The position numbers and the translations under genes were made by a program. A DNA stretch of 64,000 bases, taken from positions 384,001 through 448,000 of the forward strand of contig CP084166.1 in the NCBI GenBank assembly GCA_021513695.1, given 5' to 3'. Positions 15,256 through 60,752 of this stretch are shown here, piece after piece; positions within the stretch are counted from its first letter, which is position 1; every line of letters starts with the position of its first letter. The DNA is from Candidatus Heimdallarchaeum aukensis. Its GTDB lineage: Archaea; Asgardarchaeota; Heimdallarchaeia; Heimdallarchaeales; Heimdallarchaeaceae. The notes beneath the pieces are model-generated. The model saw only the letters and a list, made by a program, of their open reading frames with translations. It was not told the DNA's origin and ran no database searches.

Positions 15256-15288
15256 TAATAGAATCAAAAATAATTTGAATGAAAGAAG

Positions 15289-20146: not shown

Positions 20147-20311
20147 CAACATTATGTGATTTTGTGTTTTTGTGTAAAAATTCTCTATTTTTTTGTTAAA
20201 TTTATTACTATATAATAATGAATACAAAAAGAAATTAGGTTGAAATTATATCATTCATTGAATTTTTGAAAAAATTTTTGCCAAAAAAAATAAATATTTA
20301 GTTATATATAT

Positions 20312-20542: not shown

Positions 20543-20687
20543 CTCTTTACGCAATATTCCCATGCCTGTGAAGATACACAATGCACCAGTTTTAATTAAA
20601 GAAAATTTGTCTTTCTTTGAAAATCCTTATGATAGTTTGAAAATAAAAAAAGAAAAAAGGATATCTAAAGATATTCCTCTTCTTTAA
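20528..20687 (+). pseudogene. duplicated 3' fragment of herA (last ~53 codons)
   Basis: Exact copy of 15096-15255 (…TNSLRNIPMPVKIHNAPVLIKENLSFFENPYDSLKIKKEKRISKDIPLL*) with no 5' part. Confidence 0.6.
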
Positions 20688-20720
20688 TAATAGAATCAAA
20701 AATAATTTGAATGAAAGAAG

Positions 20721-24130: not shown

Positions 24131-24206
24131 TTCTTTTTTCATTATCTTTATCTTTTTTGAGAATAATATTTATATCTAAAAATGGAAATGTTCTCTAGGG
24201 TTTGAA

Positions 24207-25577
24207 ATGATACCTGGAACACTTAGACCTTTACCAAAAAGATTAGCTAAAGTAAAAACAGAAGCTGAAAGGCTTTTTAGAGCAGTGGACTATGATTACG
24301 AGACTATTAAAGAAATACTAAAATCTAGTAAAAATTTTGAATTTGAAGAAATAAGAAGACAATATATTAATTGTATAAATCATCACATAAGAATAGTTCC
24401 ACTCGTAAAAGAAGCAGATAAATTGTTAGTTAAATATTCAAGAGATCCACTTCTAAAAGAAATGGTTTTCAAACTATTTGATAAGTTGGAAAAATATGAA
24501 TACAGATTGAATGGTGATATTCAACGACTTGATACTATTTTAATGTCGAAAAGAAAAGAATACATCAATAAAACAATTCCACTAGTGAAATCAGAAATAA
24601 GAAGCAAGTTATCTTTCTTAAGAGACCTAGATTTTGAGCAATTACTCGCTGACAGTGAAAAATATTCTGCTATTATTTCAGGCATCGTAGATCGTGTAAA
24701 TATATTAAAAGACGAGTATCAAAAATTAATCGAAAATGCTCTTGAAAGCGCAGTAGAAGCTTATAAAGAGTTAAAAGAAAAACTAGACGAACTTGAAGAT
24801 GAACTAAAAGAGTATGTTCTTATTCTTGCTACTTGTAAGATGGAATTGCTAATTAACGATTCAAAAACTTTGCTTGAAGAAGGAGTTAAAATATTCGAAC
24901 GTTTTGAATTAGAACAAACAACTGAACTCATAGAAGAAGCACAAGAGTACCTAGAAAAAGCAAAACCAACTCTAAAAGAGATGAATGAATTAAAGGTAGA
25001 TATTCCTAAAAAAGCAATGAAAAAGAGCTTTGAAACAAAATTCCGAGAATTAAGAAATAAATTCGAAGAAAATAAATTTACTCTAGATGAATTGATAAAC
25101 AACATCGAAACTAGAAATAGGTTACTATCGACAAATATTGAAAGAATTGATGCATTAAAAGAGCTAGCAAAATCAATGTCGAGTGACATCAAAGAAACAG
25201 GAGAAATATTAAAAATAAAAAGAATGGGTACATTTAAACTATACTTGAAAGAAAATCTTATTCCACACATGGAGTTGCAAGAAAATGGTATAGTAAAAAT
25301 ACCAAAGGCAGAAGAACTCACGGCAACTTTTATAGATGAAATAATCTTGACTCTTGAAGATGTAGATAATAAAAATATAGTTAAGGACTGGTTCAATGCT
25401 TTTAGAGCAACAAAAGTAGGTAAGTGGATATATGAAACTTCAATCAAAATTAAAAATAAAATAGTAGACATAACAAAGAAGATTGTAAAAAAAACTAAAA
25501 AATGGATCCAAGAAATGAAAGAAAAAAGAGAACAGAAAAAATCGCAAGAAAATCAACAAAAAGAAGAGAAGAAATAG
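24207..25577 (+). CDS. coiled-coil protein of unknown function, copy 2
   Basis: Identical to 18776-20146. Confidence 0.55.
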   Translation: MIPGTLRPLPKRLAKVKTEAERLFRAVDYDYETIKEILKSSKNFEFEEIRRQYINCINHHIRIVPLVKEADKLLVKYSRDPLLKEMVFKLFDKLEKYEYRLNGDIQRLDTILMSKRKEYINKTIPLVKSEIRSKLSFLRDLDFEQLLADSEKYSAIISGIVDRVNILKDEYQKLIENALESAVEAYKELKEKLDELEDELKEYVLILATCKMELLINDSKTLLEEGVKIFERFELEQTTELIEEAQEYLEKAKPTLKEMNELKVDIPKKAMKKSFETKFRELRNKFEENKFTLDELINNIETRNRLLSTNIERIDALKELAKSMSSDIKETGEILKIKRMGTFKLYLKENLIPHMELQENGIVKIPKAEELTATFIDEIILTLEDVDNKNIVKDWFNAFRATKVGKWIYETSIKIKNKIVDITKKIVKKTKKWIQEMKEKREQKKSQENQQKEEKK

Positions 25578-25742
25578 CAACATTATGTGATTTTGTGTTT
25601 TTGTGTAAAAATTCTCTATTTTTTTGTTAAATTTATTACTATATAATAATGAATACAAAAAGAAATTAGGTTGAAATTATATCATTCATTGAATTTTTGA
25701 AAAAATTTTTGCCAAAAAAAATAAATATTTAGTTATATATAT

Positions 25743-25979
25743 GTGGTATGTATTAAAATGACTTCAGATTCATCTTGTTATTGTATTGTAAGAATAACTT
25801 GGCCTAAATGGATAGTTGCAACTGGACAGATAGCTTTAGGTATTGGAATACTCTTATTGATCATTTTTTCGATCTTTTACACAAAGACAAGTTGGGAAAA
25901 TTTTTCGCTATACGGAATCTACGTGGGAGCAGGTTTTTTGCTACTTGGGGCACTAATTCTATCAAGTAATGACTGGTAG
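25743..25979 (+). CDS. small two-TM membrane protein (native copy)
   Basis: 78 aa with two hydrophobic helices. Its 3' end lies beyond the duplication boundary. Confidence 0.45.
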   Translation: MVCIKMTSDSSCYCIVRITWPKWIVATGQIALGIGILLLIIFSIFYTKTSWENFSLYGIYVGAGFLLLGALILSSNDW

Positions 25980-31051: not shown

Positions 31052-31483
31052 TTGAGAAAAATGGCTACACTTGAAGCAATGAAAATAATTCCTGACAGAA
31101 CTGTTGAAGAGTTAGAAAAAATTGATGTTGAAATTGGTAAGATTTTAACTAAAATACTTAATGAAGATGGAAATAATTTAGATTTTATAGAAAAACAAAT
31201 TTATGCTATTCTTCTAATCTCAAAAGCTGGATTACCAATGTATTCAAACGTAAATGCTGATTTTAAAGTAAATGAACTTTTGCTGTCAGGATTGCTAGGG
31301 GCTTTACAAATAGTAGGAAATTCAATTTTCAGAGACGATACAGTTATATGTTCGATAAATTATAAAGGTTTCACGATTTTATTTGAAGAAATGTCGTTTG
31401 GAAGTTTGGTTTTAATTGTTTCAGAAAATAATCAATTAACAAGAAAAATAATTAAGATAATTAAAGAAACTTTAACTGAATAA
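31052..31483 (+). CDS. Roadblock/LC7 (MglB-like) domain protein (tentative)
   Basis: About 140 aa. The segment AILLISKAGLPMYSNV...LLGALQIVG...GSLVLIVSE matches the alpha-beta-beta-alpha-beta pattern of Roadblock/LC7 domains. Assignment is by pattern only. Confidence 0.35.
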   Translation: MRKMATLEAMKIIPDRTVEELEKIDVEIGKILTKILNEDGNNLDFIEKQIYAILLISKAGLPMYSNVNADFKVNELLLSGLLGALQIVGNSIFRDDTVICSINYKGFTILFEEMSFGSLVLIVSENNQLTRKIIKIIKETLTE

Positions 31484-31487
31484 TGTC

Positions 31488-31580
31488 TGCTTCGATAATT
31501 CAATTAATCTGATAACATTATTGGGGTTATTTCTTACAAGGATAACATCTGCACTTTCTATTGCAACATCAGTTCCTGCC
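31488..31580 (+). pseudogene. about 93-bp remnant of a copB-like P-type ATPase 3' region
   Basis: About 93% identical to 32492-32583 inside copB (first 31 bp identical). Lies opposite in strand to copB and directly after the stop of the 31052-31483 gene. Confidence 0.5.
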
Positions 31581-32250: not shown

Positions 32251-34464
32251 TTACGATTTATCTTTTTGTTCTTTCTTTGCAGATTTTTTATTGTTTTTTG
32301 GAGATATATCATATTTTCTTAAAGTTTGGGAATTGATAGCGACGATTACTGTACTCAAAGACATCAAAATTGCGCCTATAGCAGGGTTTATTATTACACC
32401 TACACTTGCTAGAACTCCTGCAGCTAAAGGAATAGCGATTATATTATATCCTGCTGCCCACCATAAATTTTGAATCATTTTCTTGTATGTTTGCTTCGAT
32501 AATTCAATTAATCTGATAACATCATTTGGGTTATTTCTTACAAGGATAATATCTGCGCTTTCTATTGCAACATCAGTTCCTGCCCCTACTGCAATTCCTA
32601 CATCAGCAGTAACTAATGCAGGAGCATCATTAATTCCGTCTCCGACCATAGCGACTTTGTATCCTTCCTCTTTTAATTTTGTAATTTTATCAGCTTTCTC
32701 ATGTGGAAGAACTTCTGCAAAATAGTCATCCATTTCTAATTCTTTTGCTACCCATTTTGCTACTTCTTCTGCATCGCCTGTAAGCATGTATGTTCTTATT
32801 CCTAAAGATTTTAACTTCTCAATAGCAATTCTTGAATCTTCTCTTATTTTATCTGCTAGAGCAAATGCGCCAGCAAGTTTGTCATCAATTATTGTAAAGA
32901 TTACAGTTTTTCCTTGTTGTTGCACTTGTTTTATCTTCTCATCTTCTATTTCTATTTTCAACTCGTCAAGTAAGTTTGGGCTACCAACATAGACTGTTTT
33001 TCCATTTATTTTACCTTTTACACCTTTACCTGGCATTACAGTAAAATCAATAGTTGAAGGGATCTTTATTTTCTTCTCTTTTGCATAATCTACTATAGCT
33101 TTTGCAATTATATGCTCAGAGTTAATCTCTAACGCTGCAGTTAACTCCAATAACTCTTCTTCAGGAATGTACGAGATAACATCAGTTACTCCAAAGTTTC
33201 CTTCAGTCAAAGTTCCTGTTTTATCAAAAACTATAGCATCTATGTTTCGAACGTTTTCAAATCCAGTTCTGTCTCTTATAAGTACTCCACTTTTAGCAGT
33301 AATAGAAGTAGATAAAGCAACAACTAGAGGAATAGCTAAACCTAACGCATGGGGGCAAGCAATAACTAATACTGTTACAGCTCTCTCTAAAGCGAAATCA
33401 GGAAAACCAAGAAGGAACCATGTAGTATAAGTTATGATTCCTGCGATAAGTGCTACATAAAATAATAATGCTGCTGCACGATTAGCTAAATCTTGTGTTC
33501 TTGATTTACTCATTTGTGCTTTTCTTACTAAGTCTATTACTTGAGCAAGATAATTTTCTTCACCAGTTTTAGTTATTTTTACATGTAAAATTCCTTCTGA
33601 ATTTATAGATCCACCAATAACCATGTCATCCACAGTTTTGGATACAGGCATTGATTCTCCAGTCAAAAAAGCTTCATTTACATATGAAGAACCGTCTATA
33701 ACTACACCATCTGAAGGAATTTTTTCTCCAGGTCTAACAAGTGTAACATCATTGATTTTAAGCTCGGAAACGGAGACATCAATGATTTCTCCATCCTTGA
33801 TTAAGTGAGCAGTAGTAGGCATAATCTTTACTAATTCCTCTAATGCTCTCGAAGCTCCCATAATACTTTTTGCTTCCACCCAGTGACCTAGTAGCATAAC
33901 ATCGATCAATGTAGCAAGCTCCCAAAAGAAATCTACTCCTTCAATGAAAAACACAGTAGCAGCCGAATAAAAGAAAGCTACAGATATTGCCATTGCAATA
34001 AGTGTCATCATACCAGGAAGTTTTTTCTTGATTTCGTTAAATAAGCCTTTTAGAAATGGCCAACCACCATAAAAATAGATAAGTGATGAGATTGCAAGAA
34101 CTAATTCTCTTTGAAAATTAAAGGTAATCTCAAAGTTTAACCATAGCTGAATTGTTTCAGATAGAAGTAAAACTGGAATGGTTAAAATTAAAGAGACAAA
34201 AAATCTTTTCTTGAAGTCAGAAATGTGAGCAGAATGGTCATGAGATTTGTGGTCCTGATGATCTCCATGTTTCATTTTAGTTCCTGTAGATCCATGATCT
34301 TTGTGTTCTTGATGATTTTGATGCGTAGTATGTGCTTCTGCAGAAACATGACTTTTATGATCCTTATGATCTTTATGTTTCATATGAGATTCTGAAGAAT
34401 CATGTTTTTTGTGATTTTGGTTATCATGATCTTGATTTTTATTTCCTTTGTTCATTTTTTTCAC
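32251..34464 (-). CDS. copB: copper-translocating P1B-type ATPase, His-rich N-terminus, CPH motif
   Basis: N-terminal His-rich metal-binding stretch (HKDHKDHKSH...), CPH in TM6 (ACPHALGLA), phosphorylation site DKTGTLT and hinge GDGINDAP. Confidence 0.9.
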   Translation of the reverse strand: MKKMNKGNKNQDHDNQNHKKHDSSESHMKHKDHKDHKSHVSAEAHTTHQNHQEHKDHGSTGTKMKHGDHQDHKSHDHSAHISDFKKRFFVSLILTIPVLLLSETIQLWLNFEITFNFQRELVLAISSLIYFYGGWPFLKGLFNEIKKKLPGMMTLIAMAISVAFFYSAATVFFIEGVDFFWELATLIDVMLLGHWVEAKSIMGASRALEELVKIMPTTAHLIKDGEIIDVSVSELKINDVTLVRPGEKIPSDGVVIDGSSYVNEAFLTGESMPVSKTVDDMVIGGSINSEGILHVKITKTGEENYLAQVIDLVRKAQMSKSRTQDLANRAAALLFYVALIAGIITYTTWFLLGFPDFALERAVTVLVIACPHALGLAIPLVVALSTSITAKSGVLIRDRTGFENVRNIDAIVFDKTGTLTEGNFGVTDVISYIPEEELLELTAALEINSEHIIAKAIVDYAKEKKIKIPSTIDFTVMPGKGVKGKINGKTVYVGSPNLLDELKIEIEDEKIKQVQQQGKTVIFTIIDDKLAGAFALADKIREDSRIAIEKLKSLGIRTYMLTGDAEEVAKWVAKELEMDDYFAEVLPHEKADKITKLKEEGYKVAMVGDGINDAPALVTADVGIAVGAGTDVAIESADIILVRNNPNDVIRLIELSKQTYKKMIQNLWWAAGYNIIAIPLAAGVLASVGVIINPAIGAILMSLSTVIVAINSQTLRKYDISPKNNKKSAKKEQKDKS

Positions 34465-42706: not shown

Positions 42707-42890
42707 ATTCAAAGAATCTCTATCAGTTAATTCATTTCTAGAAATAGTAAAATAGAAAATCCCATTTAGTAGCTTCAAATAGAAGTTCTTAAGCTAAAAA
42801 TATTGATTAATTATAGATTATTTGAAAAATGGATATTCTTTTTGCATTGTACTGATAAATAAAAAAAAGAGAAAATTGTTTTCTACAAGC

Positions 42891-43439
42891 TTAATCTAAA
42901 AATGGAAATTTCTTTGAAACCTTTTCCCAAATTTTTAATCTCCAGCCAATGTTTGTTCCATGTGCAAAGAGTAAGAGAAATGCGCCATATACTAGATGAT
43001 CGTCGAATACAGGATTATGACCTGTACCTTTTTCAGTCCAGGGAGCAACAGCTAACCACATAAGCAATAGTAAAATGAATCCTCCGTAGCCAGCAATCTT
43101 TCGACCAATACCAAAAATCAATGAAAAGCCTAATCCGTATAAAGCAATCATAAATAGCCAGTCAAGAACAGCATTTCCAGCCATAGCATCAAAAACCTTG
43201 TACAAAGGACTGTTAACAGCACCAAAATGTAAAAAACCATAGGTAGGAGAACCAGGACCGAATCCAAAAAGCCATTTATTTTCAGGAGAAGTACTATAGT
43301 TAAGCCCAAAAGTTTTGTCCAATGCAGCCCATAGAAAAATTCCAGCAAGAAAAATTCTAGTTAACATAAAGAAGATGTATTCTAAAAGATTCTTTTTTGG
43401 ATCAGTTAAATCTATTTTTTCATCCAATTTTATCACCAT
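42891..43439 (-). CDS. DoxX-like membrane protein (tentative)
   Basis: Four hydrophobic helices. LAGIFLWAALDK resembles the DoxX/TQO small-subunit family. Confidence 0.3.
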   Translation of the reverse strand: MVIKLDEKIDLTDPKKNLLEYIFFMLTRIFLAGIFLWAALDKTFGLNYSTSPENKWLFGFGPGSPTYGFLHFGAVNSPLYKVFDAMAGNAVLDWLFMIALYGLGFSLIFGIGRKIAGYGGFILLLLMWLAVAPWTEKGTGHNPVFDDHLVYGAFLLLFAHGTNIGWRLKIWEKVSKKFPFLD

Positions 43440-44043
43440 TTAATAATTTGAAAGAGCGAATTATGATGTTTAATTCCGTTCTTCTCTTTCAATCGATTAC
43501 GATACGAATGCTTGCTTTAATAGTGCATCATTAAAATAATTAAGTAAACCATATTTTAGAAAAAAAAACGATAACTGTGCATCATCTTGTCTAAGACTGC
43601 AATGTTCTTACATTTAATCAAAAAGGAGTCTAGTCTTTTTATTGTATTACTTAATAAATGCCTTTTTTGACTTTACTTTTTAAATAGAAAAAATATTGTC
43701 AAAAGTTAAGAAAATAACAAGTTCAACCTTCGAAACAAGAATTAAACTGAGAAATTAGGTAATTAATATATTTAAAAATATATTATGGTTGACATACCTT
43801 ATTATTAGGAGCTACTTTATTAAATGGATATATGTTTTGGTATGGACATCCTTGTTAGAAGAACAAGCATTTACAAAAAAATGGAAACTATACCCTTACA
43901 AGAAGGTAGGGAAAAATCAGTAAAAACAAGAAAAATGGAGAAAATAGACGCAGAAACAGAGAAATATAAATAAGGTTAATTTGTTAAAGCTGAATGTAAA
44001 GTTAATATGATCATCAGAATTTTTAAAAAGACAATAACAAATA

Positions 44044-44529
44044 TTGTTTTCCATGTCTTACCAAACTTTTGCTGAGAAGTGCGAACCTGCTGTTCCAAAG
44101 TATGTACATTACATTATTGCAGGTCTTGCATGGTTAGGAGTAGGAATAATGTTATCTAATTTTGCTATTCAATGGTTAATCGTTGCAGAGGTACCTCTTG
44201 TTTGGATTTATGGTTTAATTGGAACAATTGCTGGTTTTATCATCTACTACTTTGGTTTTTCGCATATTGCCAAAAAGAATGTTAAAAGAATAGTTGAAAA
44301 AAGGCATAAATTCTGTGTTTTTGCTTTTATTTCTTGGAAATCATACTTGACAATACTTGTTATGGTTGCAATGGGGATAGGATTGAGATTGTCTCCTATA
44401 CCTAAACACTATCTAGCCGTCTTATACATTGGTTTAGGAATAGGTTTAGGTCTGTCTAGTTTTGTTTATTTTGGAAAAACTATTCTTCATTTCAGAAATA
44501 ACCAACCAGATCAAATAACAAACAATTAG
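44044..44529 (+). CDS. membrane protein (hypothetical)
   Basis: Four hydrophobic helices. Its stop overlaps the methyltransferase stop by 4 bp (convergent genes). Confidence 0.4.
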   Translation: MFSMSYQTFAEKCEPAVPKYVHYIIAGLAWLGVGIMLSNFAIQWLIVAEVPLVWIYGLIGTIAGFIIYYFGFSHIAKKNVKRIVEKRHKFCVFAFISWKSYLTILVMVAMGIGLRLSPIPKHYLAVLYIGLGIGLGLSSFVYFGKTILHFRNNQPDQITNN

Positions 44530-45422
44530 TTTTTTTCTCTTTTATCATTAGTTCTTTCTGAATATGGGGTATAGAATTCTCCCAATTTAATCTTGCTCAG
44601 GTTCCACTCTATTATTTCTTGCAATTGTTTGTTTATTTCGTATCCTATATAATGTCTATAAGCTCCTTTACACACCACTGCTGTTGTACCGTTTCCCATA
44701 AAAGGGTCTAGAATTATATCTCCAGGTTTGCTTCCAAAATCTATACATCTTAAAACAACATCTGTTGGAAGTTTTGTTGCATTCTTTTTTATTCCCGTGT
44801 GATATACTCTTTTTATATTCCAAACATCTTCTGGGTAGTGTTCAATTTTATTAAAAAAATAGTTTCTTTTGTTTTTTACAGCAAAAAGAATATGATAATG
44901 ACTTGTAACAAATTTTCTTTTTGTAAAAACTCCAAATTGATATTTCCAAATTATGTGATTAATTAACTCCAAATTGTTTTTTTCCAGAGCAAATAGTATA
45001 TCTTTTAAATTTGTCCACCCACTGAAAATCCACACTCCTCCACTTTTTTTTAATATTCTCGGCAGTTCACTTATCCATCTATTTGTAAATTCAGAGTAAT
45101 TACTAATTTCTACCTCTTTGTAACCCTCAATTACATTATTTTTGTCTCTATTGTATATACCTTCTTTTCCGTTAAAATTTATTCCAAAGGGAGGATCAGC
45201 AACAACCATGTCAATGCTATTATCAGGAAGTTTTCGCATACCTTCAATGCAATCTTCATAATGGATAATATCAATATCAAAATTACATTTAGAACTCTCA
45301 TAAAGAGCTCTAGCTTCTGAAATAGTCCAATCATAAGTGGGTTTAAACTTTTTAGAGCTTTTTTTAGTGCTATGCTTATTTTTTCCTTTTTTGGTTGTTT
45401 GAGATTCCATAGATTTCTTCAT
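44526..45422 (-). CDS. beta-class N6-adenine/N4-cytosine DNA methyltransferase
   Basis: Motif IV DPPF (VVADPPFGINF) precedes motif I FxGxG (ILDPFMGNGTTAVV). This order defines beta-class amino-methyltransferases. Confidence 0.85.
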   Translation of the reverse strand: MKKSMESQTTKKGKNKHSTKKSSKKFKPTYDWTISEARALYESSKCNFDIDIIHYEDCIEGMRKLPDNSIDMVVADPPFGINFNGKEGIYNRDKNNVIEGYKEVEISNYSEFTNRWISELPRILKKSGGVWIFSGWTNLKDILFALEKNNLELINHIIWKYQFGVFTKRKFVTSHYHILFAVKNKRNYFFNKIEHYPEDVWNIKRVYHTGIKKNATKLPTDVVLRCIDFGSKPGDIILDPFMGNGTTAVVCKGAYRHYIGYEINKQLQEIIEWNLSKIKLGEFYTPYSERTNDKREKN

Positions 45423-45582
45423 ACCTCTTCACAGATACAATAAAGATTTATCGGTTGAATAAATTAGAATATTACAACAAAAGTAAGACAATTGCTTTTT
45501 TCTTTACATTTAAAGGAAATTCAATATAAAAAACAGAAACAATTATCCCTAAACAAAGAATAGAAAAAAAGAAAAAAACTAA

Positions 45583-46020
45583 TTATATATCGAAGGATTC
45601 TCCTTTAACTTGTTTAATATGGTGTAAATCGTGTTTCCATAGACCAAATAAATCTGCAGCTTTTTCCTCAAGATTCTTTTCTATAAGTAATTTATAGTTT
45701 TTAATTAATTCTTCTCTTTTTTCTTTAAACATGTCTACTACTTCATTCAGACTTTTTTCTTTATATTGTTCTAGTTGTTTATCGTTCCATTCGTCAAGCT
45801 TTGAACCTGAATATTCTTCAGACCATACAACTTCTTTACCCTCAAATACATCTTTTACAATTCTCAAAATTTCAATGTCCCAGACTAATAAGTGTGCAAT
45901 AAGTTCTTTCTTTCCCCAACCGTTTGATAAACTAAAATCTTCGGAAAGATCTAACACAATTTCAGTTGTTTTTTCAAATTTGTTTATATGCTCAGTTGGT
46001 TTAATTTTTTCTTGAGTCAT
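45583..46020 (-). CDS. hypothetical protein
   Basis: 145 aa with no PD-(D/E)xK or other nuclease motif recognisable. Confidence 0.4.
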   Translation of the reverse strand: MTQEKIKPTEHINKFEKTTEIVLDLSEDFSLSNGWGKKELIAHLLVWDIEILRIVKDVFEGKEVVWSEEYSGSKLDEWNDKQLEQYKEKSLNEVVDMFKEKREELIKNYKLLIEKNLEEKAADLFGLWKHDLHHIKQVKGESFDI

Positions 46021-46191
46021 AAAAACAATGTTAAAATTGTATTTTTATCTTTTTCTTTAGGTATTTAAACTGTTATTTTCTCTTATTTTCAATTGATTCA
46101 TTGGTTGTTTTTTTCTCACTTTATTCTTGTAAAGTAGTATACTTTACTTTTCTAAATAGTAAAGTATTCATAAAAGAATGATAATTGTCAT

Positions 46192-47262
46192 TTGGTGAAA
46201 AAAATGTTCACAAAAACAAAAATTATTGGTTTGGGAATACTTCTTTCAATGCTGGTAAGCTCTTTAGCTATATCAGCTGAAAGTCAAGGGTTGCAATATT
46301 CAGAACAAAATAAGCTCGTAACAATAAGCTATGAGGATCTTACACTCATGGTTAATGCTGGAGGTCAAGTACCTAAGTTTCATATCATTCAGGATGGTGG
46401 AATAGAGTTCCAAGTAATGTTCAAGCTTCTAGCCGAATATTATGACGAAAACGGAGATGGAGCTTTTCAATATGATGAACTAAATATAGCCCAAACGGGA
46501 CAGACAGGTCCTCCTACTGCTAGAACTAACATTTTAGCTCTACCAAGTGTCATCTGGTCATTCAGCGGTTTTGAAGCAGAATACGAAGAAGGAACAGAAA
46601 ATATTGTAGCTATACACTTCAGTTTTGTCAGTGATCAAATACTTATTCCATTTTACGCTGATTTTTCTATGGAAATAAAGGCCCATTTCTATCTAGATAA
46701 CAAGACCATTGATGGATATGAGATCATTGGCGGAAGAGAACTCAAATTTGATATAATCATGAACAATTGGCCATGGGAAAGAGATGATACTTACCTTGCT
46801 TTAAGATTTGACATTTCCCCTCAAAATGATGTTGCAGAAGTAAAAGATGCTGAAGGAAAACCTATTGACACAAAAACTAACTCTACAGGTGCTGAACACA
46901 AAGTCAATAATCAAAATAAAATGAAAAATTCTTTTGAGTTAGGGAATGCTACAGATAAAGGATTCTTTGCTTACTCTAATACGGCCAACTATTCCTATCA
47001 AAATGAATACCAACAAGGAACAGTAAATTGCTCTTATGCTACAAACGGAGATAACACAATTCAAACTTATTTAAGTTTCGAGCATTTCGATGAAGAAGTT
47101 GTTTATGATCCTTCACTAGGAATCGTTTCTGATACTGAAGAAGATACAGAAGGAGATACTGACGAAGATACAAGTGGTCTAGGAAATATTGAAATATTGA
47201 CAATCAGCGTATTTTCGATATCAGCCATTACTGCTGTAGCTATCATAAGAAAGAAGAAATAA
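46192..47262 (+). CDS. secreted cell-surface protein with acidic stalk and C-terminal TM anchor
   Basis: Signal peptide, then a C-terminal DTEEDTEGDTDEDTSG stalk, a hydrophobic helix and RKKK. Confidence 0.55.
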   Translation: MVKKMFTKTKIIGLGILLSMLVSSLAISAESQGLQYSEQNKLVTISYEDLTLMVNAGGQVPKFHIIQDGGIEFQVMFKLLAEYYDENGDGAFQYDELNIAQTGQTGPPTARTNILALPSVIWSFSGFEAEYEEGTENIVAIHFSFVSDQILIPFYADFSMEIKAHFYLDNKTIDGYEIIGGRELKFDIIMNNWPWERDDTYLALRFDISPQNDVAEVKDAEGKPIDTKTNSTGAEHKVNNQNKMKNSFELGNATDKGFFAYSNTANYSYQNEYQQGTVNCSYATNGDNTIQTYLSFEHFDEEVVYDPSLGIVSDTEEDTEGDTDEDTSGLGNIEILTISVFSISAITAVAIIRKKK

Positions 47263-47300
47263 TATCCTTTTTTTCTTTTTTTCTTTTTTTTTCTTTTTTT
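47263..47300 (+). terminator. poly-T transcription terminator
   Basis: tatcctttttttctttttttcttttttttcttttttttg immediately after the stop codon. Archaeal-type oligo-T terminator. Confidence 0.4.
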
Positions 47301-47394
47301 TGATTTTAATCAAAAATCTTTAGAAAATAAGACCATTCAAAACTTAATTTTGTATTATATTGAAAAAAAAAGGATTTTAGTTTAACCACTAAAA

Positions 47395-49251
47395 TTAATA
47401 TTTCTTTCCACAGATATCAATTTCTTCAAAAGTTTCCTTAACTTTATTTTTCTTTTGTTTTGTTCTGAAGATAATTTCAAATAAAACAATTGAAAAAATG
47501 AAAATCATCCAAACTATACTTTTACTGATAATTTCTTTTCTTCTAGTAATACCTATGTTTGAATTAGGATCTAATGGGTCAAAATCATTCATTACTTCTT
47601 CATAATCAGTATATGAATCTCCATCTGTATCAGGATCGTTGGGATCAGTATTATAAAATTTTACTTCTTCAAAATCGTCCAATCCATCAAAGTCACTATC
47701 TATGCGTAAAGGATTAGTATGGTAAATAAATAATTCTTCATAATCATCTAGTAAGTCACCATCTGTATCACGATTTAGGGGACTAGTATTGTAATTATTT
47801 ACTTCTTCTCCGTCTTTTAATCCATCATTATCAGAATCACTATCATTGGGGTCAGTATCGTACATGTAAATTTCAAGATTATCAGACAAACCATCCAAAT
47901 CTGAATCTTTTAATGTAGGATTTGTTCCATAAACAAATACTTCTACTCCATCATCTATTCCATCATTATCTGAATCATCATTTGTAGGATCTGTTCCATA
48001 AGCGTATATTTCATCACCATCTAATAATCCATCAAAGTCAGTATCATTATTCCTTGGATCAGTATTGTTTTCAAATTCGTGAATATTATATAATTCATCA
48101 TTATCAAAGTCAACATAGGCATCAATTGGATTAGCAACATCTAAACCATAGTAATATTCCCAGTAATTTGTCATTCCATCGCTGTCTAAATCTCCATCAG
48201 CATCGCTTGGATCATCAGGATCTAATCCTACACTAACTTCCCAGTAATCAGGCATTTTATCGTTATCACTATCTCTTACTAGTTTTATGATAAAAGCATC
48301 AATATATCCTTCCAAAGTGGAATTTAAAGGGCTTTTTAAAAGAAGATCATTACTCTCTGTACTCCCTACTATGTAGATAGAACCATCACTATCCACTGCT
48401 ATATCTCTACCTACATCTTCTTCTCTTCCACCAAAATATGTGCTAAAAACTAAATTTGTTCCACTTCTGTTTAACATAGAAACAAAAATATCGGAATAAT
48501 AAGTAGGATTTCTTTCTTCAATTGCATTTTTAATCGGAAAATCATTGCTCCATGTTCCACCTGTTAAATAGACGTTTTGATCATTATCTACCGTTATTGA
48601 CAAACAAGTATCATTTGATGAACCACCTAAAAATGTACTATAGATTATATTATCAGCTGTTGAACTTATTTTTGTTAAAAATATGTTAGAATATCCATTT
48701 AGTGTGTCATCAAAGGCATTTTTTGTTGGAAAGTCAGTACTATTTGTAACACCAGTGATATATACATAACCTTCACTATCAATAGTTATTCCTCTGGCAT
48801 AATCATTATACTTTCCCCCTAAATAAGTGCTAAAGATTAACCCATTTCCTGTAGAGTTAATATAGGATAAATAAACATCAAAAAAGCTTCCACCACCATA
48901 AGTAGAATTAAAAGCATTTACAGTCGGAAAATCATCACTTCTTGTAGATCCAGTAATGAAAATAGAACCATTAGAGAAAACTTTACCTTTAGCAAAGTAT
49001 TCAGCATCACTTCCCCCTATTATTGTGGTGAAAATAGGTTCAAGAGTTTCTCCATCAAGTTTAGTAACAAAAGCATCATAATCATCATCTGAAATATTTC
49101 CAAAAGCAAAGTTGTTGAATAAAGAAGTGCTCATAGTATCTCCAAAAATGTATATATTTCCATCATTTCCTATTTCTATCTTGCGTCCATAATCAAAAAT
49201 ATCCCCGCTTAAATAAGAACTAAAATCTACTAAATAAGGATCAATAATCAA
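47395..49251 (-). CDS. SBBP beta-propeller-repeat / thrombospondin-type-3-like Ca-binding surface protein, C-terminal part (after an in-frame TAA)
   Basis: Repeated ...GG..D.A.GI..D..G..YITG.T.S.DFP... (SBBP) units, then more than ten DxDxDGxxDxxE repeats, then a C-terminal TM helix. The track start is TTG. Confidence 0.6.
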   Translation of the reverse strand: MIIDPYLVDFSSYLSGDIFDYGRKIEIGNDGNIYIFGDTMSTSLFNNFAFGNISDDDYDAFVTKLDGETLEPIFTTIIGGSDAEYFAKGKVFSNGSIFITGSTRSDDFPTVNAFNSTYGGGSFFDVYLSYINSTGNGLIFSTYLGGKYNDYARGITIDSEGYVYITGVTNSTDFPTKNAFDDTLNGYSNIFLTKISSTADNIIYSTFLGGSSNDTCLSITVDNDQNVYLTGGTWSNDFPIKNAIEERNPTYYSDIFVSMLNRSGTNLVFSTYFGGREEDVGRDIAVDSDGSIYIVGSTESNDLLLKSPLNSTLEGYIDAFIIKLVRDSDNDKMPDYWEVSVGLDPDDPSDADGDLDSDGMTNYWEYYYGLDVANPIDAYVDFDNDELYNIHEFENNTDPRNNDTDFDGLLDGDEIYAYGTDPTNDDSDNDGIDDGVEVFVYGTNPTLKDSDLDGLSDNLEIYMYDTDPNDSDSDNDGLKDGEEVNNYNTSPLNRDTDGDLLDDYEELFIYHTNPLRIDSDFDGLDDFEEVKFYNTDPNDPDTDGDSYTDYEEVMNDFDPLDPNSNIGITRRKEIISKSIVWMIFIFSIVLFEIIFRTKQKKNKVKETFEEIDICGKKY

Positions 49252-49335
49252 TTTTTTAGCTGTATCATATTGTTCAATATTAAAAATATAACAGTTGTCA
49301 TCAAGAGTAAAATAAGCGGGGATAATTTTTCCTTC

Positions 49336-50067
49336 TTAAAAAACTTTTAAGTTTCTATCATTAAAAATTCTATATTCTGTATTTCCGATTCTTGAGATTC
49401 CAACTATATTAGTTTCATCTTCTTGTTTTAAGTAAAACTTTGAATCTGATGATAGTTGAACCTTAATAACTGAAGGATCAGCGTTTGGTTCAACAATAAA
49501 TTCGTATTTCAGAAATGAACCTGTAAAATAGTATCTTAAAGATATTCCGGGGTATATATCTTCATATATTATTTCTTGATAACAGCTTATTTGAGTAATT
49601 GCTTTATCTTTGTAAAAAAAGTTAGAATAGTAATTTGCTAATGCTTTTGCCTGTGGTACAACGATATTTGAATCAGGAAAAGAGACATTAATTAAGAAAA
49701 ATTTAGTATTTTCTTCTTTATTCGGTTTAAGATTCTGAATAAAGTAGACCTTAGATTCTCCAAAGTAAACATTTGTTAAAGGAGATTGAGCATAATAAAA
49801 AACTGTCTTGTCAAATATATGCCCTTTATTTTTCATAAAAAAGTATTTAGAATTGTAATCACTGACATAGTTCTCTTCAATTTCGCCGGAAACACTGTAA
49901 AAATTAATTTTTGCTTTATTTTGCTGTTGTGAATATTTTATGCTGTAAGAGCCAACTAAAGTGTTATTTTTGACATAAAATCCAGATAAACTGCTCACAC
50001 TTACAAGAAAGATTAAAAACAAACAAACAATAAATGAAACATTTCCTTTGCTTTGATTTTCATTCAT
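49336..50067 (-). CDS. N-terminal part of the same surface protein (signal peptide plus N-domain)
   Basis: Signal peptide MNENQSKGNVSFIVCLFLIFLVSVSS. Same reading frame as 47395-49251, separated only by TAA (49336-49338) and 28 sense codons that already show SBBP-like sequence (YFTLDDNCYIFNIEQYDTAKK). Confidence 0.55.
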   Translation of the reverse strand: MNENQSKGNVSFIVCLFLIFLVSVSSLSGFYVKNNTLVGSYSIKYSQQQNKAKINFYSVSGEIEENYVSDYNSKYFFMKNKGHIFDKTVFYYAQSPLTNVYFGESKVYFIQNLKPNKEENTKFFLINVSFPDSNIVVPQAKALANYYSNFFYKDKAITQISCYQEIIYEDIYPGISLRYYFTGSFLKYEFIVEPNADPSVIKVQLSSDSKFYLKQEDETNIVGISRIGNTEYRIFNDRNLKVF

Positions 50068-50350
50068 TTTTCTAAATATTTTAGGTTGAAAAATATTATA
50101 TAAATATTATCAAATGATTTTTGGATAGTTTTTTATTTAAAGTTTAAAATAAAGCTTGAATAGATTTTAGAATAAAAAGAAAAATTTTGCCAATTATATC
50201 TTTTTTGTAAGATTTAATCTAAAAAAGATAAATTCAAATTATAAGAAATAAGACAGATAATATTAGGCTAATTATCAGTTTTTCTATTAAATTCAAAATA
50301 GTGTTCTAGAAATCTAAAAAAATAGAATGAGGAAAACAGTAAAAAGCTAT

Positions 50351-50458
50351 AGTACTTCCGCAATAAGTTGACTGATTTCTATAGGTTAAAATTATAGGAG
50401 TTCATACTATCATTGGTGTGTTCTCAATTCATACTTTTTGAGATAATTCGGAAGTACT
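50351..50458 (+). mobile_element. MITE-like 108-bp element with 10-11-bp terminal inverted repeats, copy A
   Basis: agtacttccg......cggaagtact. 106/108 identical to the reverse complement of 60436-60543. Lies 47 bp upstream of the 50505 start codon. Flanks aaagcta / aagcta form a possible short target-site duplication. Confidence 0.6.
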
Positions 50459-50504
50459 AAAGCTAATAACAATTTTTTTAAGTATAATTATTAAATAAAA
50501 CACA

Positions 50505-51326
50505 ATGGACAATTCTAATGATTCAATCAAGGAAATGAAACTTTTTTCAAATCAAACAAGAAGGGATTTGTTAAAACTTCTTGGAGAATCAGGAGGATTG
50601 TCTTTTACTAACATTAAAGAAGAATTGAGACTTACAGATGGAAGATTATATTTCCATCTAAAGAAATTAGAAGGCTATATTGAGAAAGATACACAAAATA
50701 ATTACAAATTAACTTTAGATGGTAAGAAAATCTATGATTCTTTGTTTTTTAGTCATATTAAAGAACAGAAAAAATTTGAAGAAGATGTTTCATCGAAATC
50801 TCTTAACAAAATCTTTCCAGAAGACATTGTTTATTATTTAATTGGAACAAAAACGAGAAGTATGATAGAATTAAATATGTTATTGTTAATTTTATGTTGG
50901 TTTTTTGCAGTTACAGACAGTTACTTTAGTTCTATTGAAACAATAGTTTTGGGGGGAGCTATAGTCAATTTTGTCATTAACCTTATCCATTGGTATTTTT
51001 ACTGTTTACTCATTTATATAATATTAAAAATTGCAAAGAAAGGAATAGACTTTGTAGAATTAACTATTGTTACAATAATAGGAATTGCCCCATATTTCCT
51101 CTATTTACTAATAAAAGGGATTTTGCAATTATTGAATATAGAAATAATTGGTTTGATAAATATTGTTCTGGTAATTTTATTTGTTATTTGTAAGATATGG
51201 TCTTCACTAATAATAGCACAAGGATTAACAGTCGTCTCAAAGATCCATCCATCACAATCTTTACTAGCTGTAATTTCATTAACAATTATTGATTATTTGT
51301 ATTTGTTTATTACTTTATCAATGTAA
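50505..51326 (+). CDS. N-terminal winged-helix DNA-binding domain fused to a polytopic membrane domain
   Basis: NQTRRDLLKLLGESGGLSFTNIKEELRLTDGRLYFHLKKLEGYI (ArsR/PadR-like wHTH), followed by about five hydrophobic helices. Confidence 0.45.
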   Translation: MDNSNDSIKEMKLFSNQTRRDLLKLLGESGGLSFTNIKEELRLTDGRLYFHLKKLEGYIEKDTQNNYKLTLDGKKIYDSLFFSHIKEQKKFEEDVSSKSLNKIFPEDIVYYLIGTKTRSMIELNMLLLILCWFFAVTDSYFSSIETIVLGGAIVNFVINLIHWYFYCLLIYIILKIAKKGIDFVELTIVTIIGIAPYFLYLLIKGILQLLNIEIIGLINIVLVILFVICKIWSSLIIAQGLTVVSKIHPSQSLLAVISLTIIDYLYLFITLSM

Positions 51327-51401
51327 TGATAGAACTTTAGAAAAATAAATAAGAAGAATAATAAAAAAGAAAGAGAAAAAATAAATAGAGAGCTGAAAAA
51401 C

Positions 51402-52070
51402 ATGGAAAAAAGAAATATACTGTCTCTGTTTCTACTAGTTGTAATAACTAGTTCTATAGTCGTCTCTGGGATGCTTACAATTAGAAATTATGAAGAAATA
51501 GTCGAAGATTTACATAACACTAATATTTTTCCTACCGAACCAATAGATAATGGAGATGACGATATAAAAACAGGAATATTAGAATTGTTTTATCTCGGCT
51601 CTGTTTCTGAAAATCAAGTTTTAAAAAGTATGACCAGTTATGGTCCCCCGAATGCGACAGAAACTTTGCAGAATGTTTGGATAAATGTTACAAAAATTGA
51701 ACTGGTAGGAAATGATTCAAGTTTAGTTAAGTTGTTTGAAGACCATGTCCAGCTTGATATAAAAAAGGCAGAAGAAGAAACAATATTCTTGTTTTCATTT
51801 AACATCACAGAAGGAACATACCCTGCAATTAAAATATTCTATGAAAACACTTTGATAGTAAAAACAACAGAAGGAACGGTTAAAACATATATAATTCAAG
51901 GATCGAACTTTCTAGTTATACCTTTCATGCAAGATAAGTACTCCACTAACCAATCAAATCTAGAAATATCGAAGAATGTAAAAAAATCTACCTACTTAGA
52001 TTTCAACGTGAATTTAATTTCATTTACTCAGTCAGCAGTAATAAATATACAAGCATTCTTAAGCCTTTAA
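51402..52070 (+). CDS. secreted/anchored hypothetical protein
   Basis: N-terminal hydrophobic signal/anchor and several N-x-S/T sequons. Confidence 0.4.
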   Translation: MEKRNILSLFLLVVITSSIVVSGMLTIRNYEEIVEDLHNTNIFPTEPIDNGDDDIKTGILELFYLGSVSENQVLKSMTSYGPPNATETLQNVWINVTKIELVGNDSSLVKLFEDHVQLDIKKAEEETIFLFSFNITEGTYPAIKIFYENTLIVKTTEGTVKTYIIQGSNFLVIPFMQDKYSTNQSNLEISKNVKKSTYLDFNVNLISFTQSAVINIQAFLSL

Positions 52071-52241
52071 GTAAAAAAAATTATTTTGCAGAGTCTATTT
52101 ATTTTTAGATATTTACAGTTTTAATTCTCACAGATTCACTTCATTATTTTTAAGAGATTATATCATATAAATAATTAATAGAAAATTTATAGAAGATACT
52201 AAGATAGTTTTTTATATCTTCTTTAATTTGAATGTATAATA

Positions 52242-54990: not shown

Positions 54991-55063
54991 TTTTCTTTTC
55001 TCTTTTTTATTTTTATTTTCAGAAAAATTTTTATTAAATATATAAGGATATAATTGAAGGGGT

Positions 55064-57118
55064 TTGAACAGAGCAAAAAAAATAGTACCTTTAGCTATAA
55101 TATTTGTTCAAATAATTCTTTTTACTAGCTTACAGTATAGTTCCGTCAATGCAGATGAGATTCAGTATAACGTAATTGGAATAAACATCAATTCCGATAG
55201 TGATTTTATTGATTTTGCAAGGACAGGAGCAGGAACTAAAGAAGATCCCTACATAATTTCAGGGTATCACTTTGAGTACTATGAAATTGGGATATTTATT
55301 TCACAAACAAGTAAATATGTCATAATAACTAACTGTTCTTTTTCTAACATCAAATATGAAGCAATAAGATTGTGGTCTGTCAAATCTGGAACAGTAAGAA
55401 TAGAAAACAATACGATTGTTAATGCAAAAGTGGGAATATTCCTATATGAAGCTCCAGATTGTACAATAATAAGTAATAAAATAATGAACTGTTCTGCTTT
55501 TGCAATTAAAGATGATTTTTCTAGAATAGGATCAAAAATTATGAACAATACACTTTATAACAACGAAGAAGGAATAACCATAAGTGAAACTAATTACACT
55601 CAAATACTGAATAATTACATAATTTACAGTAGAAATGTTGGCATTTATTTAATGGATACCACAAATGGAACAGAAATACATCATAACTTCTTCTTAAATG
55701 CTAACAAACCTGCTTTTACAACAGCTTGTAGTTATGGATATTATAATAATTGGACATCAAATTATTGGAGTGATTGGGATGGTTCAAGTCCATATAAAAT
55801 AGAGAGTAAATATGAACAAACTTTTGACACAAATCCTTTAAGTTTCGATGACTCTGATGGAGACAAAATAATCGATATTTTAGAACTTGTTATGGATATG
55901 AATCCAGAATCAACCGACAACGACTCTGATGAAATTTCAGATTATGATGAATTACTTATTTATGCAACAAACCCTAATACAATAGATACAGATGAAGATG
56001 GAATAACAGATTATGATGAAATATTTGTATATTTAACAAATCCGAATACACAAGATACAGATAAAGATGGAATAACAGATTATGATGAAGTATTTGTATA
56101 TCATACAGATCCGAATAAAAAAGACTCAGATGGTGATACCTTTTCAGATTATGAAGAAATATTACAGAAAACCAATCCTAGGAAAAGTTATAGTAATCCA
56201 ATTACAAAAAAATATTTGACAATCTTTCTTCCAATTTTTTCAGGTTTATTTGGTGTTGCATTTCTTTCAACTAGATATTACTCTAACTCAAAGAAAAACA
56301 AAATTAAGGTAATCTTTGACACATGGAATGAATTTTTCAATGAATGGGAAAAAATAATTGAACAGATAAATAAATCAGGAAATTCAGAAATAGAAGAAAT
56401 AATCTTTGAGGTAAATCAGTTAAAAGAAAAAAAAGTAGATGAGCTTGAATTTGTCAAAAAAATAGTAGCTCAATCAAAGAAACTACTTATAGAACATATG
56501 AAATTCAACGTTGAATTAAGTTTACAAAAATACAAAAAGCAAATAGAAATTTTTGTTAACCTACAGAGTAATTTGATTGATAAAGCTTTAATTACCCTTA
56601 ATCAAATAACAGAAAATACAATTCTTAATGCTGTAAAAGATTATTTGTGGATGAGATTCGTTTATTTGTATAGTACTACTAGCAAATCAGAAGCAATTAC
56701 CACTATTGAAGATGTGAGTGGAGATGCACTTTTTAACAAGTTCATTAAATTTTATAGATCTTTAGATTATGAGGAAAGACTGAAAAAAGAAATATCCAAC
56801 TTAGCAGAAGAAGTAAAATTTCAGATAAATCAAGCAAAAAAATATGAAATTGAGCTTATAGAAAGTTCAATAAACTCTATTATTGATTCTCTATTTGATA
56901 AATTTAATAAACTTGAGATCGATATAAATATTCTTCAAGAAAAAATCAAGGATATAAACATCGCTCAGATTAAACTAGATAATCCTTCCGAAACTTTTGT
57001 TAGAATCGAAAATATAGTAAAAGAAGAAGTGAACATACAAATGAAAGATAAAGAAGAGTCTATTCAGTCTAATCTTTTCTCTAATCAAGAAAAAGGGTTA
57101 AAGAATCCGCGTGAATAG
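55064..57118 (+). CDS. receptor-like type-I membrane protein: beta-helix plus TSP3-like Ca-binding repeats, TM, cytoplasmic coiled-coil domain
   Basis: Signal peptide. Parallel beta-helix-like repeats (NNTIVNAKVGIFLYEAPDCTIISNKIMNC...). Three or four D-x-D-x-DGxxDYDE repeats. TM helix YLTIFLPIFSGLFGVAFLS. About 290-aa cytoplasmic domain conserved with the next gene. TTG start with GGGG SD. Confidence 0.6.
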   Translation: MNRAKKIVPLAIIFVQIILFTSLQYSSVNADEIQYNVIGININSDSDFIDFARTGAGTKEDPYIISGYHFEYYEIGIFISQTSKYVIITNCSFSNIKYEAIRLWSVKSGTVRIENNTIVNAKVGIFLYEAPDCTIISNKIMNCSAFAIKDDFSRIGSKIMNNTLYNNEEGITISETNYTQILNNYIIYSRNVGIYLMDTTNGTEIHHNFFLNANKPAFTTACSYGYYNNWTSNYWSDWDGSSPYKIESKYEQTFDTNPLSFDDSDGDKIIDILELVMDMNPESTDNDSDEISDYDELLIYATNPNTIDTDEDGITDYDEIFVYLTNPNTQDTDKDGITDYDEVFVYHTDPNKKDSDGDTFSDYEEILQKTNPRKSYSNPITKKYLTIFLPIFSGLFGVAFLSTRYYSNSKKNKIKVIFDTWNEFFNEWEKIIEQINKSGNSEIEEIIFEVNQLKEKKVDELEFVKKIVAQSKKLLIEHMKFNVELSLQKYKKQIEIFVNLQSNLIDKALITLNQITENTILNAVKDYLWMRFVYLYSTTSKSEAITTIEDVSGDALFNKFIKFYRSLDYEERLKKEISNLAEEVKFQINQAKKYEIELIESSINSIIDSLFDKFNKLEIDINILQEKIKDINIAQIKLDNPSETFVRIENIVKEEVNIQMKDKEESIQSNLFSNQEKGLKNPRE

Positions 57119-57302
57119 CTTTATTTCTCTTTTATAGTTGATACTTTTATTACAATGAACTTACTCACAATCTCTCTCCAAAAATATGAAATATAATCTT
57201 TCTTCCTAATGAATCAAACATTATTTATAATCTAATTTCACTTTTCTTTTTTCAATTTTAGAAAAATTTTTATTAAAGGTACAAAGATATGATTGAAGGG
57301 GT

Positions 57303-59288
57303 TTGAAAATAAAAAAGTCAAAATCTAATCTGTTAGTTTTGTTTTTAATATTGTTCTTTACTAGTTCTACCTATTTTCATATAAAAGCAGATGATAATAC
57401 AAAATCAGGTTTTGCAATTCAAATCTCTTCTAACGATGAATTTTCTTTATTTTCAAAAGCAGGTAACGGAACTAAAGAAAATCCCTATGTTATCTCAGGA
57501 TATATCATTGAACACTTCGAAGCAGGTATTTTTATATCTCAAACAACCAAATTTTTCGTTATTACTAATTGTACTTTTCTTAATCTAAAATATGAAGCCA
57601 TACGAATAATGACAGTAGATGTTGGTAATGTTAGAATAGAAAATAATACGATTATTAATACAAAGTTTGGAATTTATATATATCAAGCTCCAAAAAGTAT
57701 TATTGTAAATAACAAAATCGTTAATTGCACTGTATCAGGAATAAGAGACGAATTTTCAGGAATAGGTTCTAAAATTGAAAACAACACTCTTTACAACAAT
57801 GAAGAAGCTATTACAATTTATTCAACAAATTATACTCAAATATTAAATAATTATATAATCAAAAGTCGGAAAGCTGGCATATTTCTATTGTGGAAACCAA
57901 ATGGAACAGAAATACATTATAACTTTATTCTAAACTCAGTAAAACCTTATATTGCAACTGCTCACAACGAAGGATTCAATAATAATTGGACATCAAATTA
58001 TTGGAATGACTGGAATGGAACAGGAGATTATCAAATAAGTAGCATTTATGAAACAACATTTGATAAAAATCCTTTGAGTTTTAATGACACTGATGGAGAT
58101 AAAATAATTGATATTTTGGAACTTGTAATGAATACAGATCCTTATGTGGTAGATAGCGACAATGACGGAATTGATGACTATAATGAATTGCTTAATTATG
58201 CAACAAACCCTAATGCCCAAGACAGTGATGGAGATGGAATATCTGATTATGACGAAATAATTGTATATACAACAAATCCCAATGCACAAGACACTGATGG
58301 AGATGGAATAACAGATTATGATGAAGTATTTGTTTATGGAACTGATGCAAAGAAACGAGATACTGATGGCGATACTTTTTCTGATTATGAAGAAATATTA
58401 ATGAAAACTAACCCTAAAAAAAGTTACAGTAATCCTATTATTAGAAGATATCTAACCATCTTAATTCCTACTTTTTCAGGAGTACTTGTTATTGCAGCTT
58501 TTTCAACTAGATACTATACCAACTCAAGGAGAAACAAAATTAAGGTGATTTTTGAAACATGGAATGAATTTTTCACTGAGTGGGAGAAAATAATTGAGCA
58601 GATAAACAATACAAAAAATTCAGAAGTTGAAGAAATAATATTTGAGGTAAAGGAACTTAAAAATAAGAAAATTGACGAACTTGAGCTTGTAAAGAAAATA
58701 ATCAGTCAAGCTAAAAAATTACTTATCAATCATATGAAGTTCAATGTTGAATTAAGCTTACAAAGATATAAAAAGCAAGCTGAAATTGTAATTAATCTAC
58801 AGAATAACTTAATTAGCCAAGCATTAACTGCTCTTAATCAAATAACAAAGAATACAATACTAAACGCTGTAAAAGATTACTTGTGGATGAGATTTGTTTA
58901 TCTATATAGCACAACAGAAAAATCTGAAGCCATAACTACTATTGAAGATATAAGTGGAGACACTCTTTTTAACAAGTTTGTCAAATTTTACAAATCATTA
59001 GATTATGAAGAGAGATTGAAAGAAGAAGTTGCTCATTTGGCAGAAGAAATCAAATATCAAATAAGAAAAGCCAAAGATTATGAAATTGATCTTTTAGAGA
59101 GTTCAATAAATTCAATTATAGACTCTTTACTTGATAAGTTTAACAAGCTTGAAGTTGATATTAATTTTCTTGAAGAAAAAATAAAAGACATTAGTGTTGA
59201 ACAGTCCAAGATCGATAATCCAAAAGATGCCTTCTTAAAAATAGAAAAAATAGTTAAAGAAGAAGTGAAAGAACAAAAAAGCAATTAA
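57303..59288 (+). CDS. receptor-like type-I membrane protein, tandem paralog of the previous gene
   Basis: Same architecture. The cytoplasmic domain is about 75% identical and the 5' UTR / start region is also conserved (aattgaaggggtttgaa). Confidence 0.6.
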   Translation: MKIKKSKSNLLVLFLILFFTSSTYFHIKADDNTKSGFAIQISSNDEFSLFSKAGNGTKENPYVISGYIIEHFEAGIFISQTTKFFVITNCTFLNLKYEAIRIMTVDVGNVRIENNTIINTKFGIYIYQAPKSIIVNNKIVNCTVSGIRDEFSGIGSKIENNTLYNNEEAITIYSTNYTQILNNYIIKSRKAGIFLLWKPNGTEIHYNFILNSVKPYIATAHNEGFNNNWTSNYWNDWNGTGDYQISSIYETTFDKNPLSFNDTDGDKIIDILELVMNTDPYVVDSDNDGIDDYNELLNYATNPNAQDSDGDGISDYDEIIVYTTNPNAQDTDGDGITDYDEVFVYGTDAKKRDTDGDTFSDYEEILMKTNPKKSYSNPIIRRYLTILIPTFSGVLVIAAFSTRYYTNSRRNKIKVIFETWNEFFTEWEKIIEQINNTKNSEVEEIIFEVKELKNKKIDELELVKKIISQAKKLLINHMKFNVELSLQRYKKQAEIVINLQNNLISQALTALNQITKNTILNAVKDYLWMRFVYLYSTTEKSEAITTIEDISGDTLFNKFVKFYKSLDYEERLKEEVAHLAEEIKYQIRKAKDYEIDLLESSINSIIDSLLDKFNKLEVDINFLEEKIKDISVEQSKIDNPKDAFLKIEKIVKEEVKEQKSN

Positions 59289-60411: not shown

Positions 60412-60435
60412 ATTTATATTTTCCTATAAGAAAAT

Positions 60436-60543
60436 AGTACTTCCGAATTATCTCAAAAAGTATGAATTGAGAACACGCCAATGATAGTATGAACTCCTAT
60501 AATTTTAACCTATAGAAATCGGTCAACTTATTGCGGAAGTACT
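60436..60543 (-). mobile_element. MITE-like 108-bp element, copy B (inverted relative to copy A)
   Basis: Its reverse complement matches 50351-50458 with 2 mismatches. Lies 24 bp upstream of the start codon of the 59296-60411 gene. Confidence 0.6.
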
Positions 60544-60752
60544 AAAGAAAAAGAAAAAATAAAATTCTAAAAAGGTAGTTGGGGAAGAAATTCCAGAAAA
60601 TTAGCTAAAGTCCCATATAAGCCAAATAAAGAACCTAGAATTGAATAAACAAGTAAAGCATATTTTTGAAACCCAGAAATATTTATGCCTAACAAGGCTT
60701 CAAATTGTTTTTTATAGAATTTAACAGGAATATTAACAACAAAAAGTTGTTT

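Follow-up and report, generated by a model that had tools for sequence, protein, structure and literature searches.

A probable recent nonsense mutation in an SBBP-repeat surface-protein gene of Candidatus Heimdallarchaeum aukensis

Surface proteins that join DUF7948 (PF25778) to SBBP repeats (PF06739) are found in bacteria and Asgard archaea, and precomputed Pfam matches place both domains within one protein in 103 among the best 120 homologues listed; our search of the literature on SBBP in archaea found nothing relevant. Here we describe a gene of this family at positions 47395-50067, on the minus strand, of a 64-kb stretch of Candidatus Heimdallarchaeum aukensis DNA (GC 30%; hereafter the window), whose reading frame is interrupted by a TAA. 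Both Pfam models score far above their gathering cut-offs (27 bits for DUF7948, 20.5 bits for SBBP) and in the same order, DUF7948 first, as in most of the listed homologues; the difference from the family is that the DUF7948 of the window gene is cut by the stop. The closest known genes, one from H. endolithica (P0001) and one from a Heimdallarchaeaceae metagenome-assembled genome (P0122), occupy the same syntenic position and encode the same signal peptide, DUF7948, SBBP propeller, thrombospondin type 3 (TSP3) repeats and transmembrane helix, but they have CAA instead of TAA, seven propeller blades instead of five, and no miniature inverted-repeat transposable element (MITE) upstream. As a lesion, the site is like those of nonsense-substitution pseudogenes, with one transition, a stop inside a conserved domain, intact close relatives and two coding sequences called; beyond an accompanying deletion of blades and the nearby MITE, nothing of substance distinguishes it from ordinary cases. 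We regard this as one surface-protein gene of H. aukensis strain PM71 that carries a real and recent CAA-to-TAA nonsense mutation at codon 244, a reading to which we give a probability of about 0.86.

The earlier note on this DNA, made from the sequence alone, had described two open reading frames (ORFs) in one frame, parted by a lone TAA and together worth about 890 amino acids (aa). Translation reproduces this: an ORF at 49336-50067 (243 aa, starting with ATG) and one at 47395-49251 (618 aa, starting with TTG) share a minus-strand frame, and the frame across 47395-50067 contains only two stops, one internal (TAA, 49336-49338) and one at the end of the gene (TAA, 47395-47397). From the internal TAA to the annotated TTG there are exactly 28 sense codons (49252-49335), the whole part downstream of the stop has 646 codons, and joining the fragments across it gives an 890-aa product. 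In GenBank the pieces are separate coding sequences, UJG41188.1 (K9W45_01685), called a "hypothetical protein", and UJG41187.1, called an "SBBP repeat-containing protein"; the 618-aa translation matches an H. aukensis protein at 100% identity. The parts of the gene are as follows.

49339..50067, minus strand: upstream fragment, codons 1-243, with the signal peptide and the first three quarters of DUF7948 (Pfam, hydrophobicity; UJG41188.1)
roughly 49975-50046, minus strand: predicted signal peptide or N-terminal hydrophobic helix, about aa 8-31 (hydrophobic segment)
49336..49338, minus strand: premature TAA at codon 244, where a coding-strand C-to-T change at position 49338 has replaced CAA (Gln) (relatives)
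49237..49335, minus strand: C-terminal end of DUF7948, codons 245-277, now past the stop and containing the 28 codons before the TTG (Pfam)
49249-49251, minus strand: annotated start TTG, in the intact relatives a Leu codon within the gene (alignment)
48280..49230, minus strand: SBBP beta-propeller of five blades, seven in the intact relatives (Pfam, models)
47563..48270, minus strand: Asp-rich repeats like bacterial TSP3, probably a calcium-binding stalk (Pfam)
47467..47520, minus strand: C-terminal transmembrane helix at about aa 850-867; a basic tail comes after it, then the terminator TAA at 47395-47397 (hydrophobicity, model)

The signal peptide, SBBP propeller, TSP3-like repeats and C-terminal transmembrane helix proposed in the earlier note agree with the Pfam matches (SBBP, TSP3_bac) and with the hydrophobic segments of the 890-aa product, of which there are only two, at about aa 8-31 and 850-867. 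The same note had taken the 28 codons after the stop to be coding and SBBP-like; coding they are, but for the last part of DUF7948 (profile positions 184-213). A six-frame scan of the window found five stops with at least 100 open codons on each side in the same frame. At the other four, the downstream ORF has its own start 1-37 nt past the stop, a Shine-Dalgarno-like motif is present in three cases, and no Pfam domain spans the stop, 3 of their 8 ORFs having no Pfam match at all. The TAA-split arrangement of the gene at 47395-50067 exceeds chance. Systematic recoding was considered and rejected, the other four cases looking like ordinary neighbouring genes with starts of their own.

The ancestral state of the codon is given by three close relatives, which were located through protein cluster look-ups and in all of which the gene is uninterrupted. 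The first, P0122 (MHA1416378.1, 1018 aa), lies on contig L038 (Ga0366833_1016828) of the metagenome-assembled genome; this contig is 97.2-99.7% identical to window positions 42859-52174 and shares the neighbouring genes, and therefore comes from a population of the same species. Within the gene itself, the DNA identity is 97-99%. The second, P0002, is a partial gene (901 aa) on metagenome contig L003. The third, P0001 (1018 aa; CP084167.1, contig L004), is an SBBP repeat-containing protein of H. endolithica, flanked like the window gene by an HTH-Yip1 gene on one side and by the genes for a 348-aa protein and a DUF1706 protein on the other. Where the window reads AAA GTT TTT TAA GAA GGA, all three read AAA GTT TTT CAA followed by GAA or GAG and GGA, so that the lesion amounts to one C-to-T transition on the coding strand. 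The relatives also end in the same GKKY as the window gene. In an alignment of archaeal and bacterial DUF7948-SBBP proteins, 59 of the 64 sequences have Gln in the column of codon 244, where it forms part of a [YF]Q motif. The orthologue comparison that the earlier note had proposed thus yields a sense codon, CAA (Gln), at 49336-49338 in relatives that are all single genes; the arrangement that it had named as contrary, two-gene orthologues with an independent start and a signal peptide on the downstream part, was not seen in these three. Searches for other carriers of the stop added little: an exact-pattern scan with Y at the site returned nothing in metagenome contigs and only H. endolithica (CAA) in genome contigs, and a protein-guided metagenome scan for other populations with the TAA allele returned only distant relatives of 25-55% identity.

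The effect of the stop on the protein is clearest in DUF7948. As found, the upstream piece matches profile positions 1-157 (84.9 bits) and residues 4-33 after the stop match positions 184-213. With Q substituted at codon 244, a single DUF7948 match runs over aa 77-277, covering positions 1-213 of 214 at 101.6 bits, and SBBP scores 104.9 bits; the TAA therefore cuts a domain. An AlphaFold2 model of the H. endolithica protein places the corresponding residue within strand 242-244 of the DUF7948 beta domain, followed by 28 propeller strands that make seven blades over aa 280-724, a TSP3 region with low predicted local distance difference test (pLDDT) scores and no regular secondary structure, and a C-terminal helix at 972-1005. 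The intact protein is thus predicted to have the build of a type-I-anchored, surface-displayed binding protein whose cytoplasmic tail is short and basic. Among solved structures, CylK, the cyanobacterial Friedel-Crafts alkylating enzyme (7ron, 7fh6), gives the best match to the model of the intact protein, with a Foldseek E-value of about 3e-22 at 19-20% identity (for 7fh6, a root-mean-square deviation of 3.0 over 452 columns); no match in the PDB was found at the sequence level. Judging from the model, this resemblance would concern the propeller fold only, and it lends no support to an enzymatic role.

Taken together, the CAA codon of the single-gene relatives and the position of the stop inside DUF7948 support the nonsense mutation, one of the options raised in the earlier note. 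Translation from the ATG at 50067 would stop after 243 residues, inside DUF7948, and the secreted fragment, with its incomplete domain, would most likely be unstable. The propeller and stalk would either not be made or be unable to reach the surface, because the 646 remaining codons have neither a start signal nor a signal peptide of their own. Loss of function of the gene is the probable outcome. This is a gene-inactivating mutation of the ordinary kind and not a new coding mechanism, and it has no bearing on open questions of the genetic code or of gene expression.

To date the lesion, we used H. endolithica as the outgroup to polarise the changes. On the window lineage, 20 synonymous and 10 non-synonymous changes fall downstream of the stop, against a neutral expectation of about 80% non-synonymous (binomial P = 4e-8); upstream there are 0 synonymous and 3 non-synonymous window-specific changes, too few to interpret (Fisher P = 0.05). 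Purifying selection thus appears to have acted on the downstream codons during almost the entire period after the divergence from the L038 population, and the stop is therefore probably recent; relaxed selection past the stop (dN/dS near 1) was not seen. A few points weigh against a recent inactivating mutation. Continued translation of the downstream part would also predict the low dN/dS found there. The site may hold a CAA minority allele or a mixture of populations. Finally, the run-level assemblies described below share the BioProject of the genome (PRJNA721962), so that they exclude an assembler artefact but not a variant specific to the culture. We also observed that, against L003, the first 243 codons of the gene show 0 synonymous and 3 non-synonymous differences, and the downstream part a dS of 0.15; this mosaic divergence suggests recombination between strains within the gene, or else a chimeric metagenome contig.

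Among the alternatives to a nonsense mutation, the one that survives best, although we consider it very unlikely, is that the TAA is a sequencing, polishing or consensus artefact and that the organism truly has CAA and an intact gene. Strain PM71 comes from an alkane-fed sediment enrichment of the Auka vent field (PMC8813620), and the genome was obtained from a low-biomass enrichment metagenome, with multiple displacement amplification in the Nanopore library (PMC8813620), circumstances in which errors might be suspected. There is also some noise at the level of single runs, since the Logan assembly of SRR15988958 (L002) differs from the window in two homopolymer lengths in an intergenic region. 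These are its only differences, however, and it contains the TAA, as does the Logan assembly of SRR15988954 (L001, 6042 bp), which is 100% identical to the window over its whole length and unbroken through the site. The lesion is a substitution and not a homopolymer indel, and the genome was assembled with SPAdes from Illumina PE150 reads, the Nanopore reads serving for scaffolding (PMC8813620). Because the substitution stands in an Illumina-based assembly and recurs in both run-level assemblies, which are separate from each other and come from another pipeline, the sequencing error that the earlier note had offered as an option is unlikely to be the source of the TAA.

Less likely still is leaky or programmed readthrough of the TAA, in which a near-cognate tRNA-Gln would restore the wild-type protein and leave the gene partly functional. 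Near-cognate insertion of Gln at UAA is a common route of readthrough. In this respect it is suggestive that the stop falls exactly on a Gln codon and that, on the window lineage, the codons downstream of it show purifying selection. Relatives from the same and the sister species have CAA, however, so that the stop is not a conserved one. TAA is also the commonest terminator in the window, ending 23 of 42 long ORFs, and it closes this very gene too, exactly where the relatives end. The fold of the 126 nt starting 7 nt before the stop is no more stable than those of shuffled sequences (z = +0.51), an Rfam E-value scan of 47000-50600 gave nothing relevant (one chance-level microRNA match), and no tRNA gene was found within the window. 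Readthrough, the option that the earlier note had itself ranked lower, is thus unsupported.

We give even less credence to the idea that there are two working genes here, one encoding a small secreted DUF7948 protein and the other an SBBP/TSP3 protein translated separately from the TTG at 49251. GenBank does list two coding sequences, and the region of the five-blade propeller is predicted to fold with high confidence; but the break lies inside a Pfam domain and within a predicted strand, in the intact relatives the TTG is a Leu codon within the gene, and both the three close relatives, as single ORFs, and the homologue counts given above join DUF7948 to SBBP. The downstream product would lack a signal peptide, its only other hydrophobic segment being the C-terminal transmembrane helix. 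An independent start for the downstream ORF was looked for and rejected: no Shine-Dalgarno-like motif precedes the TTG, whereas six ORFs with a close upstream gene on the same strand have one, the stretch from the stop to the TTG has neither ATG nor GTG, and there is no second signal peptide. A scan for sigma-70 promoters and terminators, uninformative for an archaeon, gave counts equal to those of shuffled sequences. The most improbable proposal of all is that the UAA of codon 244 is read as Gln at a useful rate, by a near-cognate tRNA-Gln or a suppressor tRNA, to give the protein at a lower dose, which, if true, would be a first hint of ciliate-like UAA-to-Gln decoding in the archaeal relatives of eukaryotes.

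With the nonsense mutation thus retained, two further changes at the locus, neither of them seen in the earlier note, deserve description.

48716..48741, minus strand: junction of a 384-bp deletion, within the 22-nt direct repeat CTGACTTTCCAACAAAAAATGC (alignment to L038)
50350..50459, no strand assigned: MITE-like insertion of 110 bp, intergenic, on the upstream side of the gene (terminal repeats, empty site in relatives)

The window gene lacks, in register, 384 bp (128 codons, two blades) that are found in both L038 and H. endolithica, and since the intact model has seven blades and the deletion removes two, its propeller has five. The repeat CTGACTTTCCAACAAAAAATGC occurs twice in L038, in two SBBP units 384 bp apart, so the deletion appears to be repeat-mediated; its junction is also present in L001 and L002. 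AlphaFold2 models the five-blade version with high confidence (pLDDT 92.3, predicted template modelling score 0.87), and because of this we do not call the deletion inactivating; a second inactivating lesion was considered here and is not claimed. P0002, on its short metagenome contig, has a different gap of 78 aa in the same region of the propeller, and blade number thus seems to vary among close relatives, unless that contig is misassembled.

The MITE carries perfect 11-bp terminal inverted repeats, TAGTACTTCCG and CGGAAGTACTA, and a duplicated TAGCTT borders the copy at 50350 on both sides. A second copy, 98% identical and in the opposite orientation, is present at 60435-60544. The insertion is recent, because the site at 50350-50459 is empty in L038, which is 97-99.7% identical, and in L003. 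Both Logan contigs break inside the element, as expected of a multi-copy repeat. Its sequence was absent from viral contigs and from the other loci that we fetched.

For annotation, UJG41188.1 and UJG41187.1 should be treated as two pieces of one disrupted gene, and counts of Asgard pangenomes or surface proteomes should include neither two proteins nor a small stand-alone DUF7948 protein at this place. More generally, one surface-protein locus of a closed Asgard genome combines a nonsense mutation, a loss of blades and a fresh MITE, all absent from the environmental relative on L038. These three changes fit a rapid turnover of surface proteins, or a relaxed need for the gene in the enrichment culture.

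Other genes nearby are of a similar kind. An ORF at 46192-47262 has a signal peptide and a C-terminal transmembrane helix, and the adjacent paralogous genes at 54997-56946 and 57236-59182 (684 and 661 aa) are about 76% identical at the DNA level; together they form a neighbourhood of surface-protein genes. H. endolithica has a single syntenic gene of 662 aa, with NosD/beta-helix and faint TSP3 matches, which may be the orthologue of either paralogue. Compared with window positions ~44467-44501, L038 has about 1.4 kb more (8090-9518), including a 375-aa ORF without a Pfam match; with about 35 bp of overlapping homology at its borders, this segment is an insertion/deletion polymorphism beside an N6_N4 methyltransferase gene.

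Farther away, positions 15096-20527 and 20528-25958 are tandem copies, head to tail and 99.9% identical, of a segment of about 5.43 kb. Among the duplicated genes are one for a Rad50/SMC-like ATPase (710 and 709 aa) and an ORF of 456 aa, and the duplication adjoins genes for a HerA-like protein (13375-15255) and an Mre11-like metallophosphoesterase (15289-16059). Either a DNA-repair operon has undergone a true segmental duplication, or scaffolding has produced an artefact. A 98-bp direct repeat of 95% identity is also present, its two copies (31483-31580 and 32487-32584) lying about 1 kb apart.

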